Shown: one piece after another, positions 2,566 through 63,185 of the stretch
How the letters are laid out: every line of letters begins with the position of its first letter
Numbering within the stretch: the first letter of the stretch is position 1
Assembly: GCA_034431095.1 (NCBI GenBank)
Contig: DAOUDM010000019.1
Coordinates: forward strand, 13,653-77,652
Reading direction: 5' to 3'
Source of the DNA: Dehalococcoidales bacterium
Lineage (GTDB): Bacteria > Chloroflexota > Dehalococcoidia > Dehalococcoidales > W693
DNA: 64,000 bases
Notes under the pieces: generated by a model
What the model was told of the DNA's origin: nothing
Databases searched by the model: none
The model's input: only the letters and a program-made list of their open reading frames with translations
Made by a program: the position numbers and the translations under genes

Positions 2566-2722
2566 GCGGGGAGTTTGAGGGGCGAAGCCCCTCATTAAAA
2601 AGCTTCCCCTTCCCCTTGGCAAGGGGAAGGGGATAAAGGGGATGGGGTTGATAAGAATAAGACACACTTCTATCTTTTCCCACCCGCCGCCCTTTAAGGA
2701 ATAAGATAAGGGGGTGAGGTAG
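2566..2722. repeat. intergenic hairpin-repeat cluster C1 (modules M1+M2+M6)
   Basis: Contains hairpin TGAGGGGC-GAA-GCCCCTCA (2576-2594) and a 13-bp perfect hairpin TCCCCTTCCCCTT-GGC-AAGGGGAAGGGGA (2605-2633) with tail TAAAGGGGATGGGGTTG. It then has TTCCCACCCGCCGCCCTTTAAGGAA. Near-identical copies occur at 39860-39945 and, inverted, at 50459-50545. Confidence 0.85.
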
Positions 2723-17114: not shown

Positions 17115-18327
17115 CCGTCTCCTCGGTCTCTATGTCTGCTGCCGGCTTTGCTTTTGTTGTCTTCGTTGCCTTCTTGGCCTTAGTATCCTTTTCCTTTGGC
17201 TCTTTAGTGGCTTTAGTCTTCGCCTTTGTCTCCTTAACCGCCGCCGGCTTCGCCTTCGCCTTTCGCTTGGCCGGTGGTTTTTCAGCCTTCTCTGGCTTTG
17301 CGGCAGGCTCCTCCGCTTTTGCCCCAGCCTCTTCAGCCACCGCCGGTTTCGCCTTAGTGGCTCTCTTTGCTTTTGGTTTAGCCGGCTCGGCTTCCACCTC
17401 GGCAACCGCCGGTTTCGCCTTAGTGGCTCTCTTTGCTTTTGGTTTAGCCGGCTTGGCTTCCGCTTCGGCAACTGCCGGCTCCGCCTTTTTCTTTGCCCTC
17501 GGTTTTACCGGCTTGGCCTCTGGCTCGGCTTCCTCTTTTACTTCTTTTACTTCGGCTTTTATCTTCTCTTCTGCCGTTATTGCCTCTTCAGCTACCGGTG
17601 GCGCCGGTATTTCTTTTGGCTCGACTGCCGCCGGTTCCGCCTCAGTAGCTATGACGGCTTCTGGTTCGGCTGTTATCTCCTCGGCTATTACCTCCTTAAG
17701 CTCCGGCAGAATATCTCCCCGGTATATCCACACCTTGACCCCGATGCGGCCCAGGGTGGTACATGCCTCGGTGAAGCCATAGTCGATATCAGCCCGCAGC
17801 GTGTGTAGCGGTACCCGCCCCCGGTGCATCGTCTGGCGGCGGGCTATCTCGACACCACCCAGCCTGCCGGAACAGCTTATCTTCATTCCCTGGGCCCCAG
17901 CCTGCATGGTGCGGAAAAGCGCCTGTTTCATAGCTCTGCGATAGGCAAGACGACGCTCAATCTGCTCGGCTACCATCCGGGCTACCAGAAAAGCGTCCAG
18001 CTCGGGCTGTCGAATCTCCTGTATATTAAGCTGAACCCTCTTTTTGATAAGGCTCTCAAGGTAGTTCTTGACTTCGTCAACTCGCTGTCCGCCCCGCCCG
18101 ATAACGATGCCGGGCCGGGCGGTGTAGATAGATACCGATACCTTATGTGCCTGACGCTCAATCTCGACCAGAGAGACACCGGCATCGACATATTTATCGC
18201 TGATGGCGTTCCTTATCTTTATGTCCTCGTGGAGGAACTCCGAGTAGTGCTTGTCGGCATACCACTTTGCCTGCCAGTCGCGTATGATGCCAATCCTGAA
18301 CCCAAACGGGTGAACCTTACGTCCCAT
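17092..18327 (-). CDS. rpsC: 30S ribosomal protein S3 with a roughly 190-aa Lys/Ala/Pro/Glu-rich C-terminal extension
   Basis: The N-terminal ~215 aa is canonical S3 (MGRKVHP.GFR). The frame then stays open through a low-complexity tail that runs to, and overlaps by 23 nt, the rplP start. Confidence 0.85.
17339..17470. repeat. 66-bp tandem duplication (2 copies, 63/66 identical) inside the S3 tail
   Basis: 17339-17404 and 17405-17470 align with 3 mismatches. Each copy encodes the 22-aa unit [23 protein letters not shown] degenerate third copy follows. Confidence 0.9.
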
Positions 18328-23992: not shown

Positions 23993-24463
23993 TCACCATC
24001 TATAGTGGGCAAAAGCCCGGTTAGCCTCGGCCATCTTATGAGTATCCTCACGCTTCTTGACCGCCGCTCCCTGTCCCTTTGAAGCATCGATAAGCTCCGA
24101 TGCCAGTTTTTCCGCCATAGACTTACCGGTTCTGGCTCGGGCTGATTTGAGCAGCCACCGTATAGCCAGGGCTATGTTGCGGCCCGGCCTGACCTCCACC
24201 GGCACCTGATAGGTAGCGCCGCCAACGCGACGCGGCTTTACCTCAAGTAAGGGGGTGGCATTGCGCACCGCCGCCTCCAGAATACTGACCGGCTCTCTAC
24301 CCTCGCTCTTCTCTATAATCTCCAGAGACTGGTAAACAATCTGCTCGGCGGTAGTCTTCTTACCGTTAAGCATTACTTTATTAACCAGCCTGGATACGGT
24401 TAGATTATTGTACTTGGCGTCAGGTATGACCTCTCTTTTCTTGACCGCTGCCCGCCTTGGCAT
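23993..24463 (-). CDS. rpsG: 30S ribosomal protein S7
   Basis: 156-aa ORF beginning MPRR, with the C-terminus [10 protein letters not shown]. Confidence 0.95.
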
Positions 24464-24471
24464 CTCTCCCC

Positions 24472-24909
24472 CTATACTTCGTCAGTCTCAGCCGTCTTTT
24501 TAGCCCGCTTACTGCCGTATTTACTGCGGCCCTGACGGCGATTGGCGACACCGCTGGTATCCAGCGTTCCCCTTACAATATGATAGCGGACGCCAGGCAA
24601 ATCTGGCACCCGCCCACCACGAATCAGCACCACGGAGTGCTCCTGAAGCTCATGTCCTTCTCCGGGGATATAAGCTGTCACCTCCATGCTATTGGACAAC
24701 CGCACCCTGGCTATCTTGCGCAGTGCCGAATTAGGCTTCTTGGGTGTGGCCGTCTTGACCTGTATGCAGACCCCCCGCTTTTGCGGCGAGCCAGCCCCGC
24801 GTACCACCTTGTTCTTCAAGGCGTTGTAGGTAAATCTGAGCGCCGGCGTCTTGGTCTTCTTGGCGACCTTCTTGCGCCCTTTACGAACCAGTTGATTAAC
24901 AGTGGGCAA
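24472..24909 (-). CDS. rpsL: 30S ribosomal protein S12
   Basis: The conserved N-terminus [11 protein letters not shown] follows TTG 24909, with a GGGGGAG SD just upstream. The ORF-track start at 24963 adds 18 non-conserved residues. Confidence 0.9.
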
Positions 24910-25034
24910 TTTCTCCCCCTTCTCCGGACAATTTCGAAGGATGAGCCTTAGCTCATCCTTCACAAGCCAAATGAATCGACTGGAACTTTAGCCCAATCAA
25001 TAACCATAGCTGAAGTGGCTATCAACAGCCGCTA

Positions 25035-25064
25035 AGTCTAGCACAAACAAAATATAGATGTCAA
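25035..25064 (-). promoter_or_regulatory. sigma-70-like promoter for rpsL-rpsG-fusA
   Basis: On the minus strand this reads TTGACA (25064-25059), N18, TAGACT (25040-25035), with TGC immediately 5' of the -10 (extended -10). Confidence 0.55.
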
Positions 25065-25092
25065 CAGCTATGATAGCCGATGATATTGCCGC

Positions 25093-25121
25093 TTGACAAG
25101 CGCCCCATCCCGTGCTATATT
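25093..25121 (+). promoter_or_regulatory. near-consensus sigma-70-like promoter for the aromatic amino acid operon
   Basis: TTGACA (25093-25098), N17, TATATT (25116-25121). It lies about 235 nt upstream of the DAHP synthase ATG. Confidence 0.65.
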
Positions 25122-25148
25122 TCTATAAAAGAAAGCTGTGATTTAAAG

Positions 25149-25235
25149 ATGTTAGTTACTGCCAGCCCCCGTGGAATGAATTATTACGCGTATTTTACAT
25201 TTTTCTGGCGCACCAGTGCGCCCGGGAGGTTTTGA
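25149..25235 (+). CDS. candidate aromatic-amino-acid leader peptide (28 aa; or 19 aa from ATG 25176)
   Basis: Hand translation gives MLVTASPRGMNYYAYFTFFWRTSAPGRF*. Seven of nine consecutive codons (25182-25208) are Tyr/Phe/Trp. The ORF lies between the promoter and a terminator hairpin. Its SD is weak. Confidence 0.55.
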   Translation: MLVTASPRGMNYYAYFTFFWRTSAPGRF

Positions 25236-25274
25236 TTTGAAATCCTAGAGAAGAAATCATCGTAAATCCTTAAA

Positions 25275-25301
25275 ATCCTCCCGCCGGGAGGATATTTTAT
25301 T
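25275..25301 (+). terminator. attenuator terminator in the aro leader
   Basis: ATCCTCCC-GCC-GGGAGGAT forms an 8-bp stem followed by ATTTTATT. The upstream duplicate CCGGGAGG (25222-25229, at the end of the leader ORF) can pair with the 5' arm CCTCCCG (25277-25283) as an antiterminator. Confidence 0.55.
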
Positions 25302-25357
25302 AATAAGGGAAAGCCAGGGGGCAATTTATTAAAATACAGGAATAACGGGGGGAGAAG

Positions 25358-26434
25358 ATGATTATAATGGAGAGAGACGCCACATCGGAGCAAATAAAAC
25401 ATGTTGTCAGCGAGATAAAAAAACACGGATTGAGGGCTGATATTTCCAAGGGGGAATTTAGAACGATTATCGGCCTGGTCGGAGATGAAAGCAGGATATC
25501 CTTTGCTCACCTGGCCGCTCTACCAGGAGTCAAGGAAGCCAGGATGGTGGAAACTCCCTATAAATTGATTAGCCGGGAGTACAGCGAATTGTTTGAGGGC
25601 AAAGACGAGAGCCGTATCGTTGAGGTGGGCGATGTTAGAATCGGCGGTAACGAGCCGATATTCATCGCTGGACCCTGTGCTATAGAGAGTAAAGCACAGC
25701 TATTCCGAATTGCAGAAGAGGTTAAAAGAGCCGGGGCTCATATTTTGAGGGGCGGCATCTTCAAGCCGAGGAGCTCGGTGCACTCCTTCCAGGGGCTGGG
25801 TGCCCAGGGTAATGAAGAAGCCAGGGAGGCACTGACCTGGCTGCGTGACGCCGGGCAGAGGTTCGGTATGCCGGTAGTGACCGAGGTGAGAGGGGAGTCA
25901 CAGGTTGACCTGATAGCCGAGTATGTCGACATTCTGCAGATTGGTGCTAGGAATATGTACCACCAGGATATGCTCAGCCGGGTAGCCAGGAAGGGCAAGC
26001 CGGTCCTTTTCAAGAGGCATTTTGGCGCCAGCGTAGAGGAGTTTCTCTCCTTTTCCGAGTATATTGCCGCCGAGGGCAACAAGGATATCATCCTTTGCGA
26101 GCGGGGAATAGTCCCCATCGGCAAGGGTAAGAGCTATACCAGATACACCCTTGACCTGGCGGCAGTCCCGGTCGTCCAGAAAGAGACCTATCTGCCGATA
26201 ATAGTCGACCCCAGCCACGCCGCCGGCCGCCGCGACCTCATCTTCAGCATGAGCTGTGCCGCTATCGCTATCGGTGCCAGCGGCCTGGTGATTGAGGTAC
26301 ACTATAATCCAGCCGAGGCGCTGGTTGACGCACAGCAGATGGTAACCCCCGAGGAACTGGGTAGGATTATCGCCACATGCAAGGGAATCAGCAAGATGGT
26401 GGCATCTGATAAGAAAAGGGTTAAAGCGGTATAG
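25358..26434 (+). CDS. aroF: 3-deoxy-7-phosphoheptulonate (DAHP) synthase, type I-beta with N-terminal regulatory domain
   Basis: 358-aa ORF with a KDO8PS-like core (IAGPCAIES, ILRGG.FKPR.S..SFQG). A ~90-aa N-terminal extra domain is present. A GGGGGGAG SD sits upstream. Confidence 0.9.
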   Translation: MIIMERDATSEQIKHVVSEIKKHGLRADISKGEFRTIIGLVGDESRISFAHLAALPGVKEARMVETPYKLISREYSELFEGKDESRIVEVGDVRIGGNEPIFIAGPCAIESKAQLFRIAEEVKRAGAHILRGGIFKPRSSVHSFQGLGAQGNEEAREALTWLRDAGQRFGMPVVTEVRGESQVDLIAEYVDILQIGARNMYHQDMLSRVARKGKPVLFKRHFGASVEEFLSFSEYIAAEGNKDIILCERGIVPIGKGKSYTRYTLDLAAVPVVQKETYLPIIVDPSHAAGRRDLIFSMSCAAIAIGASGLVIEVHYNPAEALVDAQQMVTPEELGRIIATCKGISKMVASDKKRVKAV

Positions 26435-34508: not shown

Positions 34509-35261
34509 CTACATCCCCGGTATTTCCATTATCTCCACCCCTTCTGGGAGCTCAAACATACTGTCCGGGATATCGACGAACTCTATATTTTTATACTCTA
34601 TTATAACCGTACCTTCGGCAGTCGTCATCTCTACCCGGATAGGGAACCCGTTTTCTTTCCATATCCACATTTTAGTCGTTGTTACCTCGGCGGTATATTC
34701 GACTACCAGGCAGACCTTACCGTCGAGTGTCTCTGGGTCTAAAATCGTCGGATTGTAGTCCGTAATAGACTGGACTTCATCCATAACGCTTTCCACCGGC
34801 TCGTATGTCATTCCCGTAGCCATGTTCTGGTCTGGATAGTAAATATATATTGTCTGAGCATCCATATCCAGCAGCGAAATTATGGTTTGACCTTCGGCGG
34901 TCACTTCCATCCGCATCTTGTTATTTTTAATCCACATCTTCGTAGTCATTGTTGGCATCCCGGGAGAGGTCATCATCACATCGTATTTCACCGAGGTTAT
35001 GCCGGCTGAACGGCCTAAAATCTCACCCAGTGTTTCACCGGGCGTAGTCGTCGTAGTCGGTGTTGTGGTCGTAGGAGTAGTAGTCGTCGGTGCGGTCGTC
35101 GTTGGCGTTGTTGTAGTCGGTGTCGTGGTCGTTGGCGTTGTTGTAGTCGTCGGTGTGGTGGTCGTTGGCGTCGTCGTTGTCGTGGCACAGTTACAGGAAG
35201 CAATCAATAACACTGCGGTTACCAATGCCGCAATCAACAGCAATGACAGCGATTTCCTCAT
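34509..35261 (-). CDS. putative lipoprotein with Thr/Pro-rich linker and LolA-like/DUF4367-like beta domain
   Basis: The start ATG 35261 has a GGAGGGAGG SD. The signal peptide ends in LLIASC (lipobox-like). About 50 aa of (P)TTTT repeats follow. The C-terminal domain (MWIKNNKMRMEV, MWIWKENGFPIRVEM) is assigned to a family only tentatively. Confidence 0.7.
   Translation of the reverse strand: MRKSLSLLLIAALVTAVLLIASCNCATTTTTPTTTTPTTTTTPTTTTPTTTTPTTTAPTTTTPTTTTPTTTTTPGETLGEILGRSAGITSVKYDVMMTSPGMPTMTTKMWIKNNKMRMEVTAEGQTIISLLDMDAQTIYIYYPDQNMATGMTYEPVESVMDEVQSITDYNPTILDPETLDGKVCLVVEYTAEVTTTKMWIWKENGFPIRVEMTTAEGTVIIEYKNIEFVDIPDSMFELPEGVEIMEIPGM
35030..35185. repeat. short tandem codon repeats encoding the Thr/Pro linker
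   Basis: GGTGTYGTNGTCGTNGG-type units are reiterated about 10 times on the plus strand. This is the complement of the (ACN)4CCN codons. Confidence 0.8.
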
Positions 35262-39547: not shown

Positions 39548-39955
39548 GTTGGCGGGTGGCTATAGATAAATAAAAGAGAGATTATTTTTCTTAGCAACCT
39601 CTCCCTGCTTAATCCCCCTCTCCTATCAATGAGAGGGGGAAATATCTATAATGGAGGGACTGCGTCCCTCCAAGCCTCCCGCTTTTATAAATGCAAAGCC
39701 TTTCTTAAGCTCTCCAATTTATCGTTCTTCCCTCTCCCTTTAATGAAGGGAGAGGGATAGAGGGTGAGGGATTTATAATAGTTCGCCCCTCTCAAACTCC
39801 CCATTTAAGTCCGTGCCATCTTAAACAACCATCCTAAGCATCCCTGTTTTTCGTTTAAGGGGGGAGTTTGAGAGGGGCCAGCCCCCTCAAATAGAACTTC
39901 CCCTTCCCCTTATTAAGGGGAAGGGGATAAAGGGGATAGGGTTGGTGAAGAAATA
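39548..39955. repeat. intergenic hairpin-repeat cluster C2 (M6-M3-M4-M5 followed by M1-M2)
   Basis: Hairpins lie at 39613-39640, 39653-39671 (GGAGGGAC-TGC-GTCCCTCC) and 39730-39756. A long-range inverted pair lies at 39781-39802 / 39861-39885. M2 with its tail spans 39897-39944. The left part is collinear with C8 and the right part with C1. Confidence 0.9.
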
Positions 39956-43810: not shown

Positions 43811-44055
43811 CAATAACCCCATCCCTCTATTTATTTTGTTAATCTCTCCCCCTTAATCCCCCTCTCTTTAATAAAGAGAGGGGGAAGAGGATTAGAGGGG
43901 CTTCGCTCCTCTAAAACACCCTGTAATACTTTAAGATTTTGTATCTCTTAGACACCCTGTAATATATTTATAGGTTTCACCTCTTTTAAACACTCCTTTT
44001 ATCCCCCCTTCCTTTGGCAAAGGAAGGGGGTCAGGGGGATGGATTTTCCCAGCTT
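43811..44055. repeat. intergenic hairpin-repeat cluster C3 between hisA and hisI
   Basis: Contains an M2-tail complement (AACCCCATCCC), an M3 hairpin (TCCCCCTCTCT-TTAATAA-AGAGAGGGGGA), a degenerate M1 (GAGGGGCTTCGCTCCTC) and an M2 variant. That variant reads CCCCCTTCCTTT-GGC-AAAGGAAGGGGG with tail TCAGGGGGATGG. Confidence 0.85.
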
Positions 44056-48289: not shown

Positions 48290-48507
48290 TTAGGGAGTCT
48301 AAGAGAGGCGAAGCCTCTCTTAGACTCCCTTCCCCCTCCCTTATCAAGGGAGGGGGATACAGGGGGAGGGTTGTATTGAAAATCAAAGGGGAGTGGATGG
48401 GGAAGGCTCTTATAATAGAACTCTTTCTTTCCCACCCAAGCCCGCCCTCGTCAGCTTCTTTAAAATATCGGGGGGGTAGCCCCACCGCCCCTTAAGGAAG
48501 GATAGGG
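48290..48507. repeat. intergenic hairpin-repeat cluster C4
   Basis: Contains a 17-bp perfect hairpin GGGAGTCTAAGAGAGGC-GAA-GCCTCTCTTAGACTCCC (48293-48329) and an M2 variant TCCCCCTCCCTT-ATCA-AAGGGAGGGGGA with tail TACAGGGGGAGGGTTG. M6 complements (TTTCCCACCC, CCCCACCGCCCCTTAAGGAAGG) follow, and the cluster ends in GGATAGGGTTG. Confidence 0.85.
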
Positions 48508-50437: not shown

Positions 50438-50454
50438 GGCTTAGTGTTTTAGTC

Positions 50455-50548
50455 TTAACAACCCTATCCCCTGTATCCCCTTCCCCTTACAAGGGGAAGG
50501 GGAATATTTTTATAAGAGGGGCTTCGCCCCTCTCGGACTCTCGATTTA
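50455..50548. repeat. intergenic hairpin-repeat cluster C5 (M2+M1 in inverted orientation)
   Basis: CAACCCTATCCCCTGTATCCCCTTCCCCTT-ACA-AGGGGAAGGGGAA is followed by GAGGGGC-TTC-GCCCCTC. This is the reverse-orientation counterpart of C1. Confidence 0.9.
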
Positions 50549-53879: not shown

Positions 53880-53945
53880 TGGTTGAGGACTACCTCACCC
53901 CCTGTGTCCCCCTCTCCTAACAAGGGAAGGGGTAGGGGATAGGTT
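53880..53945. repeat. intergenic repeat cluster C7 (degenerate M2/M3)
   Basis: CACCCCCTGTGTCCCCCTCTCC-TAACA-AGGGAAGGGGTAGGGGATAGGTTG. The hairpin is imperfect and carries a G-tract tail. Confidence 0.7.
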
Positions 53946-57307: not shown

Positions 57308-58174
57308 CTATGTTTTTGGCTCAAGCTCAAGGCTGAAGTCCAGCGCCTTCGCCGAGTGGGTTATAGCGCCAACGGAGATGGTATCGACCCCGGCCAGAGC
57401 CACCGTGCGGACGTTATCCAGTGTTATGCCTCCCGAGGCTTCGGTCTTTACCTTCGCCGGCATTAACTCCATCACCCGTTTTATCTGGTCAGGGGGTATA
57501 TTGTCCAGCATAACTATATCGGCGCCGGCATTAGCGGCTTCTATCGCCTCGGCAGTGGTATCGACCTCTATTTCAATTTTTAAGCCCTCGGGGGCATTCT
57601 TTCTGGCCCTGGTTATTATGTCTGCCAGGCTCATACCCAGCGCCCGTAGTGCCGCTATATGATTGTCCTTGATAAGAATCCCGTCGCCGAGGTGGAGGCG
57701 GTGGTTCTGCCCGCCGCCGATGCGTACCGCATATTTGTCGAGCAGTCTCATACCCGGTGCCGTCTTGCGGGTATCGGTTATGATGGTGGCAAATCCCTTT
57801 ACCCGGGCGACGTATCTGGCTGTCTCGGAGGCGACGCCGCTCAGGCGGCTCAGGAAGTTGAGGGCGACCCGCTCCGCCCTGAGAATACCTGCCACGTTAC
57901 CGGCGATGGTGGCTACCCTGTCCCCCGCTTTTAGCCCTTCTCCATCCGGGATAAGTAGCTCTACCGCCAGCGATGGCTCAGCCCTGACAAACACCAGCCT
58001 GGCGATGTCACCGCCAGCCAGTATGCCTTCTTCTTTAGCCACTATGGCTGCCCTGCCGGCGAGGTCGGCTGGTATCAGTATCTGGCTGGTTATATCACCA
58101 CCGCCGGTATCCTCGGCCAGCGCCAGGTCTATGATTCTATCAACCTGCTCTTCGGATAGTTGAAGTTTATCCAT
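57308..58174 (-). CDS. nadC: nicotinate-nucleotide diphosphorylase (carboxylating)
   Basis: 288-aa ORF with the QPRTase pattern (AL.ED.G.GD.T, RKT.PG.R, IMLDN). Confidence 0.9.
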   Translation of the reverse strand: MDKLQLSEEQVDRIIDLALAEDTGGGDITSQILIPADLAGRAAIVAKEEGILAGGDIARLVFVRAEPSLAVELLIPDGEGLKAGDRVATIAGNVAGILRAERVALNFLSRLSGVASETARYVARVKGFATIITDTRKTAPGMRLLDKYAVRIGGGQNHRLHLGDGILIKDNHIAALRALGMSLADIITRARKNAPEGLKIEIEVDTTAEAIEAANAGADIVMLDNIPPDQIKRVMELMPAKVKTEASGGITLDNVRTVALAGVDTISVGAITHSAKALDFSLELEPKT

Positions 58175-58194: not shown

Positions 58195-58512
58195 TCTCTT
58201 GGAGGGTGGTGGGTGGGTATAGATACTAAAAGAAAAATTACTATTCATAACAACCTCTCCCCCTTAATCCCCCTCTCCTTGTAAGGAGAGGGGGAGGGTT
58301 AATATGGAGGGACTGCGTCCCTCCAAACCTCCCTCTATTATGTTTTATATGGGTTATATTCCCCTAAACCTCACTCTATTGTGTTTATATGGGCTGTATC
58401 CCCCAAACTTCCCTTTCGAGCTTTGCCCCTCTTAAACATTCCTTTTATTCCATTTATTCCCTCTCCCTTTATTACAAGGGAGAGGGATAGAGGGAGAGGG
58501 ATTTATATAATT
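58195..58512. repeat. intergenic hairpin-repeat cluster C8 (M6-M3-M4-spacer-M5) between nadB and nadC
   Basis: Holds GGGTGGTGGGTGGGTATAGA, an 11-bp hairpin at 58268-58295, GGAGGGAC-TGC-GTCCCTCC at 58306-58324, and an 11-bp hairpin at 58459-58486 with tail ATAGAGGGAGAGGGATTTATA. It is collinear with the left part of C2. Confidence 0.9.
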
Positions 58513-62974: not shown

Positions 62975-63185
62975 CTTTAACAACCTTTCCCCTTAGCCCT
63001 CTTCCTTAAGGGTGGTGGGTGGGAATAGACAGTAAGAGAGGGATTTATATTTGCTACCAACCTCACCCCCTTAATCCCCCTCTCCTTATAAGGAGAGGGG
63101 GAGATATAAGAAAGAGGGGGCATAAGCCCCCTCTAAACACCCCCTTCCAGGTGCTGGTTAGGGGAGAGAGATAAAAAGAAATAGG
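62975..63185. repeat. intergenic hairpin-repeat cluster C9
   Basis: Contains M6 (GGGTGGTGGGTGGGAATAGA), an M5 tail fragment (AGAGGGATTTATA) and an M3 11-bp hairpin at 63075-63102. An M1-type hairpin AGAGGGGGC-ATAA-GCCCCCTCT lies at 63113-63134. Confidence 0.85.

Follow-up and report, generated by a model that had tools for sequence, protein, structure and literature searches.

We analyzed a 64,000-nucleotide stretch of contig DAOUDM010000019.1 from a Dehalococcoidales bacterium (Chloroflexota; assembly GCA_034431095.1, positions 13,653 to 77,652 of the forward strand), referred to below as the window. Its intergenic regions carry hairpin modules with homopyrimidine and homopurine arms and G-rich tails, which the original prediction had described as hairpins able to switch to a G-quadruplex (G4). 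Comparison of the modules with each other and with copies from other genomes suggests that they are probably dispersed intergenic intrastrand triplex repeats of the BoxC/PIT type, in which the tails would be mirror-image third strands and the G4 motif a by-product. The architecture itself is already described, for the E. coli repeats known as BoxC, PIT or TMECO, and a G4-hairpin switch for that element has likewise been published; the set in the window is unusually dense and diverse.

Twelve such modules were found in the window, 11 of them perfect hairpins (at least 9 bp) and one a chimeric module at 53893-53943. The 11 perfect homopurine hairpins of at least 9 bp compare with a mean of 0.02 in 100 dinucleotide shuffles, and the nine motifs in which hairpin and tail give at least eight perfect base triads compare with none in 100 shuffles. 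Canonical G4 motifs were not clearly above chance (nine, against 5.2 ± 2.1 in shuffles); six of these nine fall inside hairpin modules, and six of the 12 modules hold four tracts of three or more Gs. The modules are strictly intergenic, occurring in eight clusters that are mosaics of at least three module types; the window alone contains six or more arm types. The G-rich strand is the plus strand in six copies and the minus strand in five, with one copy chimeric, which argues against a replication-strand bias within the window.

All 11 perfect hairpins share one domain order, 5' to 3' on a single strand: a pyrimidine arm (Y), a purine arm (R) and a reverse-Hoogsteen tail (RH). The tail lies on exactly one side in all window copies, after a 3-nt linker (TAA, TTA, TAC, TAG or TCA), and it is the tail alone that gives a module its orientation, because the Y-loop-R hairpin reads alike on both strands. 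When tails were scored by a triad rule (G opposite G, A or T opposite A), eight copies were compatible at 12/12 or 13/13 positions, two at 12/13 and one at 7/8, whereas the opposite flanks scored 1-5. The tail is the purine arm read backwards, as can be seen where arm AAGGAGAGGGGGA carries the tail AGGGGG(A/T)GAGGTT, arm AAGGGAGGGGGA the tail AGGGGGAGGGTT and arm AAAGGAAGGGGG the tail GGGGGATGGATT. Ten copies have Watson-Crick stems of 12-13 perfect pairs and one copy has a stem of 10, within the class II triplex limit of 6-15 nt with at most one mismatch (ITxF definition, Holder 2015). Ten of the first loops measure 2-6 nt and one measures 8 nt, which we took to agree with the class II range of 1-6 nt, and by sequence the third strand would run antiparallel to R with G.G-C, A.A-T or T.A-T triads, as in class II.

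Mirror order of the tail across genomes

Copies elsewhere were sought in one genome per species using a pattern that specified the two stem arms only, which gave at least 120 stretches; the pattern was limited to 13-nt arms starting TCCCC, and the subfamily proportions are therefore no census. A further 80 metagenome loci around relatives of one window gene brought the total to 187 hairpins with full flanks, and the counts below refer to copies listed in these searches. Eighty of 120 stretches were labeled Dehalococcoidia or Chloroflexota, the others belonging to Ignavibacteria, Calditrichota, Bacteroidota and further groups, and 117 of 136 stem-pattern matches were perfect palindromes.

The tail was compatible at all positions or all but one in 146/187 hairpins (78%), and the linker forming the second loop was 3 nt long in 130 of these 146 tailed copies. 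Opposite an arm G the tail base was G in 1087 cases, A in 43, T in three and C in one; opposite an arm A it was T in 364, A in 305, G in 12 and C in 10. The tail side scored 0.90, compared to 0.54 for the other flank. The original prediction had staked its idea on the G-rich tails being kept along with the stems, and they are, yet this fails to single out a G4, because what is conserved (mirror order and the A/T positions) is not G4-specific.

Copies with asymmetric arms allow mirror order to be told from direct order. Among these, the longer compatible run was the mirror one in 114 copies and the direct one in 15; counted by arm type, mirror order won in 40 and direct order in three, with four ties, of 47 asymmetric types (p = 3e-9). 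Permuting the tails among 55 arm types gave a compatibility of 0.717 ± 0.011 against an observed mean of 0.822, which none of 2000 permutations reached. A G4 predicts neither the mirror order nor the A/T positions, as four G tracts in any order suffice and the loops are unconstrained, while an antiparallel third strand with G.G-C, A.A-T and T.A-T triads would give exactly the observed mirror pattern. We regard this arm/tail covariation, a result of comparing sequences, as the main new argument that the third strand matters.

Two other pairings of the tail were considered and rejected. Watson-Crick pairing with the pyrimidine arm would require direct order, over which mirror order prevails. If the selected form were a pyrimidine-motif triplex formed by the C-rich strand, only 305 of 691 positions would be compatible, because each T of the G-strand tail places an A in the third strand on the C side; a T is often found opposite A, in keeping with a purine motif on the G-rich strand.

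A canonical G4 motif was present in 54/146 tailed copies (37%), and four tracts of four Gs in 16/146. The commonest subfamily, with arm GGAGAGGGGG and tail GGGGGTGAGG, has G-runs of 2, 1, 5, 5, 1 and 2 and is unable to form a three-tetrad G4. The canonical (G3+ N1-7)x4 motif is not a shared property of the family; it is a by-product, because it arises only where an arm happens to contain two tracts of three or more Gs. Some copies in other phyla have a tail on both sides and would form an extended hairpin, like the 'palindromic TM' of Holder et al. At one locus (L016; loci are given by L numbers) the purine arm and its tail belong to the GGGAAGGGG type, whereas the pyrimidine arm still matches the GGGAGGGGG type of the window, which looks like recombination in the loop that moved R and RH together.

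Modules of the window, their composite core and genomic context

The site flagged by the original prediction lies in the module at 2605-2649 on the plus strand, with Y TCCCCTTCCCCTT, loop GGC, R AAGGGGAAGGGGA, linker TAA and RH AGGGGATGGGGTT (13/13 triads). The hairpin scan found a perfect 13-bp hairpin at 2605-2633 (TCCCCTTCCCCTT-ggc-AAGGGGAAGGGGA), with a predicted energy as DNA of -15 kcal/mol (z = -3.8). As first described, the sequence at 2623-2647 (GGGGAAGGGGATAAAGGGGATGGGG) is a canonical G4 motif with four tracts of four Gs and loops of 2, 5 and 2 nt; the hairpin's 3' arm supplies the first two of these G tracts, so that the two folds would be mutually exclusive.

The same arrangement had been reported at other sites, and it recurs there. 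A plus-strand module at 39729-39772 (arm AAGGGAGAGGGA, linker TAG, RH AGGGTGAGGGAT; 12/12 triads) holds a three-tetrad G4 motif at 39748-39770 and 9-nt blocks nearly identical to those of E. coli BoxC, and a second with the same arm and linker at 58458-58502 (plus strand, RH AGGGAGAGGGAT, 12/12 triads) holds a motif at 58478-58500. Arm AAGGGGAAGGGGA is also found on the plus strand at 39899-39943 (linker TAA, RH AGGGGATAGGGTT, 12/13 triads, G4 motif 39917-39941) and on the minus strand at 50460-50503 (linker TAC, RH AGGGGATAGGGTT, 12/13 triads), where the C-strand motif at 50462-50486 falls within the 50459-50504 given earlier; a GC hairpin follows at 50513-50535. At 48331-48372 (plus strand, arm AAGGGAGGGGGA, linker TAC, RH AGGGGGAGGGTT, 12/12 triads) the G4 motif occupies 48348-48370, the start of 48347 given earlier being one base too early. 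This module shows mirror rather than direct order because its arm is asymmetric, and it is preceded by a 17-bp palindrome at 48293-48329.

Six modules of the same family carry no canonical G4 motif and were absent from the original prediction. Those at 43841-43885 (minus strand, arm AAAGAGAGGGGGA, RH AGGGGGAGAGATT, 13/13 triads) and 44004-44045 (plus strand, arm AAAGGAAGGGGG, RH GGGGGATGGATT, 12/12 triads) have complete tails, as do two minus-strand modules with arm AAGGAGAGGGGGA and linker TTA at 58252-58295 (RH AGGGGGAGAGGTT, 13/13 triads, no G4 by the G4 folding model either) and 63059-63102 (RH AGGGGGTGAGGTT, 13/13 triads). The 63059 copy belongs to the subfamily commonest in other genomes, with at least 63 copies of its arm among the fetched loci. 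The minus-strand module at 39599-39640 (arm GAGAGGGGGA, linker TTAAGC, RH AGGGAGAG) has a degenerate tail with 7/8 triads, a 10-bp hairpin and an 8-nt loop. In the chimeric module at 53893-53943, to which no strand is assigned, a C-rich tail and Y arm of the GGAGAGGGGG subfamily meet, at the loop, an R arm with its G-rich tail from the GGGAAGGGG subfamily, and this looks like recombination between two oppositely oriented elements.

Five of these modules are paired with a smaller motif of the opposite order, RH-R-Y (class I). Next to the flagged module, on the same strand, is a hairpin GAGGGGC-GAA-GCCCCTC at 2579-2595 with a mirror-image G-rich 5' flank (GGGGAG-TTT-GAGGGG); as a class I motif it spans 2568-2593 (RH GGGGAG, TTT, R GAGGGG(C), loop GAA, Y (G)CCCCTC; six perfect triads), and the predicted fold of 2565-2650 shows both the class I and the class II hairpin. 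The others, each on the strand of its class II partner, are at 39653-39680 (minus strand, RH GGGAGG, R GGAGGG, Y CCCTCC; beside 39599-39640), 39861-39888 (plus strand, RH GGGGAG, R GAGGGG; with 39899-39943), 58306-58334 (minus strand, RH AGGGAGG, R GGAGGGA, seven triads; with 58252-58295) and 63113-63144 (minus strand, RH GGGGGTGT, R AGAGGGGG, eight triads; with 63059-63102). Across all loci listed, 33 class I motifs within 40 nt of a class II motif shared its strand and two lay on the other one.

An alignment of 54 copies of the commonest subfamily showed conservation confined to about 88 nt, which start with the class I third strand and end shortly after that of class II. Beyond this core the 54-copy consensus held no conservation, no terminal inverted repeat and no target-site duplication, and no conserved promoter was seen around it. 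An independent small-RNA gene was rejected, as nothing is conserved outside the two motifs and 12 copies per 64 kb are implausible for such a gene. A scan of the window with Rfam at the gathering threshold gave no family match to the modules, the only matches being two tRNAs.

A C-rich box, CCCACCCNCCNCCC (GGGTGGTGGGTGGG on the other strand), was found at 2679-2692 and 48431-48447, as the reverse complement at 58204-58217 and 63010-63023, and in weaker form at about 39551-39566. It often follows TCTAT and lies 30-75 nt past some third strands, just upstream of gene starts. We rejected it as a part of the element, since it is near only 9/146 listed copies (including L025 and L073), and regard it as a separate module.

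The closest relatives found have 72-77% DNA identity and at most 80% protein identity to the window. Among relatives at 72-80% identity, an element is often present at the matching intergenic position. Elements are 88-93% identical between genomes where genes are 69-77% identical, which points to strong constraint, turnover by replacement, or both. In three loci (L122, L123 and L125) the element of 50460-50503 is present at the orthologous site downstream of an aminotransferase gene, and in L016 an element lies near this site, after an extra small insert resembling an open reading frame (ORF). A different subfamily occupies the site of 58252 in L021. Compared with window positions 50438-50540, L134 (about 1105-1125) retains only the C-rich tail AACCCTATCCCCTTTA, directly followed by unrelated sequence, and L121 (about 1825-1845) keeps only a remnant of the outermost flank downstream of the aminotransferase gene; these remnants suggest deletion of the hairpin part of the element.

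Five of the loci (L016, L031, L073, L079 and L112) come from one metagenome-assembled genome labeled 'uncultured delta proteobacterium MFD04408.bin.1.96'. Over several genes it shares synteny and about 74% DNA identity with the window, and these repeats are abundant in it; it has probably been assigned to the wrong taxon.

At 2708-2745, a phosphoglucomutase-like gene has no ATG, GTG or TTG between the in-frame stop TAG at 2720-2722 and the conserved N-terminus ..KFGTDGWR from 2735; its first in-frame canonical start is at 2972. The sequence 'GGGGGTGAGGTAG ATA' at this gene parallels 'GGGGTGAGGTAG ATG' at the start of a minus-strand gene at 58174, which suggests that the start codon is AUA, that a point mutation occurred or that there is a sequencing error. 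The isolated tail-like sequence at 2708-2722 appears to be the ribosome-binding site of this downstream gene. The linker and third strand TAAGGGGGTGAGGT of many copies (e.g., 63059-63074) closely resemble an extended Shine-Dalgarno sequence (TAAGGAGGTGA), and their complement resembles the 3' end of 16S rRNA.

Elsewhere in the window, in-frame tandem repeats occur within ORFs, as GTCGT-rich repeats with 15/9-nt periodicity at 35041-35196 and as 60-66-nt repeats at 17229-17529. GC and AT skew flip sign at about 24000-25400, at the junction between a long minus-strand block, a ribosomal-protein-like operon (4.2-24 kb), and the plus-strand genes that start at 25.3 kb; this could reflect either gene-strand bias or a replication origin.

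Proposed fold and competing explanations

We propose that each module carries on one strand a Y arm, a short loop, an R arm, a 3-nt linker and a G-rich RH that mirrors R. When this strand becomes single-stranded, during replication, transcription, repair or cruciform extrusion, Y and R would form the 12-13 bp hairpin, and RH would fold back antiparallel to R in the major groove, its G.G-C, A.A-T and T.A-T triads making a class II purine-motif intrastrand triplex. Where the module is joined to the smaller class I motif (RH-R-Y) on the same strand, the resulting core of about 88 nt would have third strands at both ends. Judging by studies of the E. coli element, so stable a single-strand fold might stall polymerases and be linked to local rearrangement, and the elements probably persist as mosaic repeats similar to bacterial interspersed mosaic elements (BIMEs). 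Folding in vivo and any function are what we infer rather than observe.

The hairpin/G4 switch of the original prediction, also proposed by Kaplan et al. (2016), holds that arm and tail form an intramolecular G4 in K+ that competes with the hairpin as a regulatory toggle. Part of this stands: canonical motifs overlap the hairpin arm in six of 12 window copies, and there the two folds would compete. When ten modules were folded with the G4 term of ViennaRNA (RNA parameters), the 2605 copy alone favored the G4, with four tetrads (-31.3 against -25.0 kcal/mol for the hairpin); in the other nine the hairpin won (-21 to -28 against -8 to -10 kcal/mol) or no three-tetrad G4 was available. In three-tetrad copies for which both folds were scored the hairpin led by 13-17 kcal/mol, as in the 39729 copy (-23.3 against -9.6 kcal/mol in this RNA model). 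The G4Hunter check that had been suggested gave high scores for arm plus tail, 2.05 with a canonical motif, but also 1.68 without one; the score reflects G-richness only and so is unable to separate a G4 from a triplex. Circular dichroism (CD) differences between K+ and Li+/Mg2+ were the basis on which Kaplan et al. proposed a G4-hairpin-duplex switch for the E. coli HPG1/HPG2 sequences (PMC5100583). The E. coli element studied by Holder et al. (2015), by contrast, gave 18 imino signals by NMR which, with CD and a melting temperature of 70-82 °C, indicated a triplex, G4 being explicitly considered and excluded (PMC4666352). The Methanomicrobiaceae repeats fold as a hairpin or triplex, and one of two oligonucleotides moved towards G4, only after heating and annealing in K+, while the second did not switch (PMC8044849). 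Against the switch as an account of the whole family, four tracts of three or more Gs are missing from 63% of tailed copies, the commonest subfamily among them, tracts of four Gs are fourfold in few copies (16/146), and mirror order and tail A/T positions are conserved though a G4 requires neither. We therefore consider the switch improbable as a general explanation; the original observation was right, and its G4 interpretation captures a real but secondary property. Its passing remark on triplex (H-DNA) potential has in turn become the main point.

Two further explanations, each of which we hold to be very unlikely, take the tail as structurally incidental. The modules could be RNA-level elements, that is, intrinsic terminators or 3' stem-loops that stabilize mRNA, with a tail that is incidental or Shine-Dalgarno-like. 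They are intergenic and often directly follow stop codons, and linker plus tail (TAAGGGGGTGA) reads like an extended Shine-Dalgarno sequence. However, a T-rich tract after the hairpin made only two of the eight modules at 39-59 kb terminator-like, both co-directional with the upstream gene, and the GC-rich stem with T-run of a Rho-independent terminator is not a feature of the modules. They also occur in both orientations relative to genes, with convergent intergenic regions least used; the core has no conserved promoter, PIT elements are described as lacking promoter and terminator activity (Hoyne and Maher 2002, as cited in PMC4666352), and the mirror covariation of the tail is left unexplained. 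The claim that the element is more than a simple terminator is borne out. Palindromic units recognized by a protein or transposase, of the repetitive extragenic palindromic (REP)/BIME kind or like miniature inverted-repeat transposable elements, would make the tail a sequence-specific site whose mirror relation has no structural meaning. Such units would account for the mosaic intergenic clusters, for different subfamilies, remnants and chimeras at orthologous sites, and for elements better conserved between genomes than the flanking genes. A protein site, though, needs no mirror covariation with the neighboring arm across 40 arm types, mirror repeats offer no rotational symmetry to a dimeric protein, the core ends show neither target-site duplication nor terminal inverted repeat, and no strand bias was seen in the window. 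As mobility is compatible with a triplex fold, this explanation is partly a complement rather than a rival.

Several points weigh against the triplex reading itself. The in vitro evidence for triplex formation comes only from the near-identical E. coli sequence, for which the duplex dominates once the complementary strand is present and in vivo dimethyl sulfate footprinting gave no protection (PMC4666352). The copies with four tracts of four Gs could favor G4 in K+, and in these a hairpin/G4 switch may operate. One non-compatible position, A opposite G, recurs in GGGGATAGGG tails. Independent compensatory events number fewer than 47, because arm types share descent and loop recombination moves R and RH jointly. 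The counts of orientation relative to flanking genes, given below, rest on crude longest-ORF gene calls containing known errors.

The preferred reading, a triplex repeat with a mirror-image third strand, has consequences beyond this window. We put forward only tentatively, as doubtful at present, that mirror covariation and the same-strand class I/II 'double triplex' core are comparative-genomic evidence of a DNA triple helix under selection in living cells, which the E. coli BoxC experiments never established. If true, it would imply that Dehalococcoidia and other anaerobic lineages have machinery, of the host or of a mobile element, by which folded single-stranded triplex DNA is read or exploited. 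G4 predictors (regular expressions, G4Hunter) will flag such repeats in many bacterial and archaeal genomes despite their triplex design, and genome-wide claims of conserved bacterial G4s need a triplex control. BoxC/PIT elements have had no assigned function for about 30 years; a lineage in which they are roughly 50-fold denser, with many co-varying subfamilies, offers a natural mutagenesis series for testing the importance of the third strand and for guiding the search for the machinery that spreads or uses them.

Comparison with known systems

In H-DNA and synthetic polypurine reverse-Hoogsteen hairpins, as in the modules, a purine mirror repeat (R-linker-RH) can pair by reverse-Hoogsteen bonds, and an added pyrimidine strand gives an antiparallel triplex. 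In the modules the pyrimidine partner is in cis on the same strand, so that no duplex mirror repeat or supercoil-driven strand swap is required. With REP/BIME sequences the modules share clustered, short, GC-rich palindromic units in intergenic mosaics whose copy content varies between relatives, but REPs are without a mirror-image third strand and the consensus here has no conserved GTAG-type head.

The putative quadruplex sequences of Methanomicrobiaceae (PMC8044849) are likewise intergenic repeats, each with a G4 motif that shows partial complementarity to a neighboring C-rich tract, with a hairpin or antiparallel triplex as the default in vitro and a G4 as a possible alternative. They differ in having the C-tract on the 3' side of the G-rich part (class I order), in their shorter stems (C3TC3) and in their archaeal hosts; in the window class II motifs predominate, with class I as the smaller partner. 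In HPG1/HPG2 (PMC5100583), which PMC8044849 links to Holder's triplex repeat, a C-rich tract ends about 3 nt upstream of a conserved G4 motif, and the switch proposed for them is the idea of the original prediction. A third strand was not considered there, and the comparative data presented here argue that the G4 is not the conserved property.

The closest match is the E. coli BoxC repeat, renamed PIT by Hoyne and Maher (2000, 2002) and TMECO by Holder et al. (2015), who give the consensus 5'-CCCTCNCCC-N3-6-GGGNGAGGG-N3-GGGNGAGGG-3' as a class II purine-motif intrastrand triplex and report more local rearrangement around these elements (PMC4666352). Earlier work, as cited in that paper, found no link of the elements to gene orientation. 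Our copies agree with this, the G strand having no fixed orientation to flanking genes (41 co-directional, 30 antisense, 27 divergent, 11 convergent by crude ORF calls). The type A sequence of Holder et al., rebuilt from the published control oligonucleotide, gave a 100% identity match in E. coli. Each of the 5426 complete genomes searched had matches, at a median of 19 places; one copy, between flgF and flgG, reads TCCCTCGCCCC-TTT-GGGGAGAGGG-TTA-GGGTGAGGGG.

The window modules share with this element the 5'-Y-loop-R-3 nt-RH-3' order on one strand, the triad code including 'TGA opposite AGA', the 3-nt second loop, and an intergenic, multi-copy distribution in either orientation with an overlapping G4 motif. 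The copies at 39729 and 58458 even use GGGAGAGGG and GGG(T/A)GAGGG, almost the E. coli blocks. They do not match the strict TMECO/BoxC consensus: they hold CCCTCTCCC, GGGAGAGGG and GGG(T/A)GAGGG with gaps between the 9-mers of 9-10 nt and 5 nt, which exceed the TMECO spacing because the stems extend by TT/AA and A, and the blocks of the other window subfamilies differ from the consensus. Stems in the window have 12-13 triads where those of E. coli have 9-10, a single genome harbors many arm subfamilies side by side, fusion to a same-strand class I motif is usual, and the host belongs to Chloroflexota, not Proteobacteria. The density also differs, at about 190 per Mb (12 class II modules in 64 kb) against a median of 19 per E. 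coli genome of about 5 Mb, roughly a 50-fold difference.

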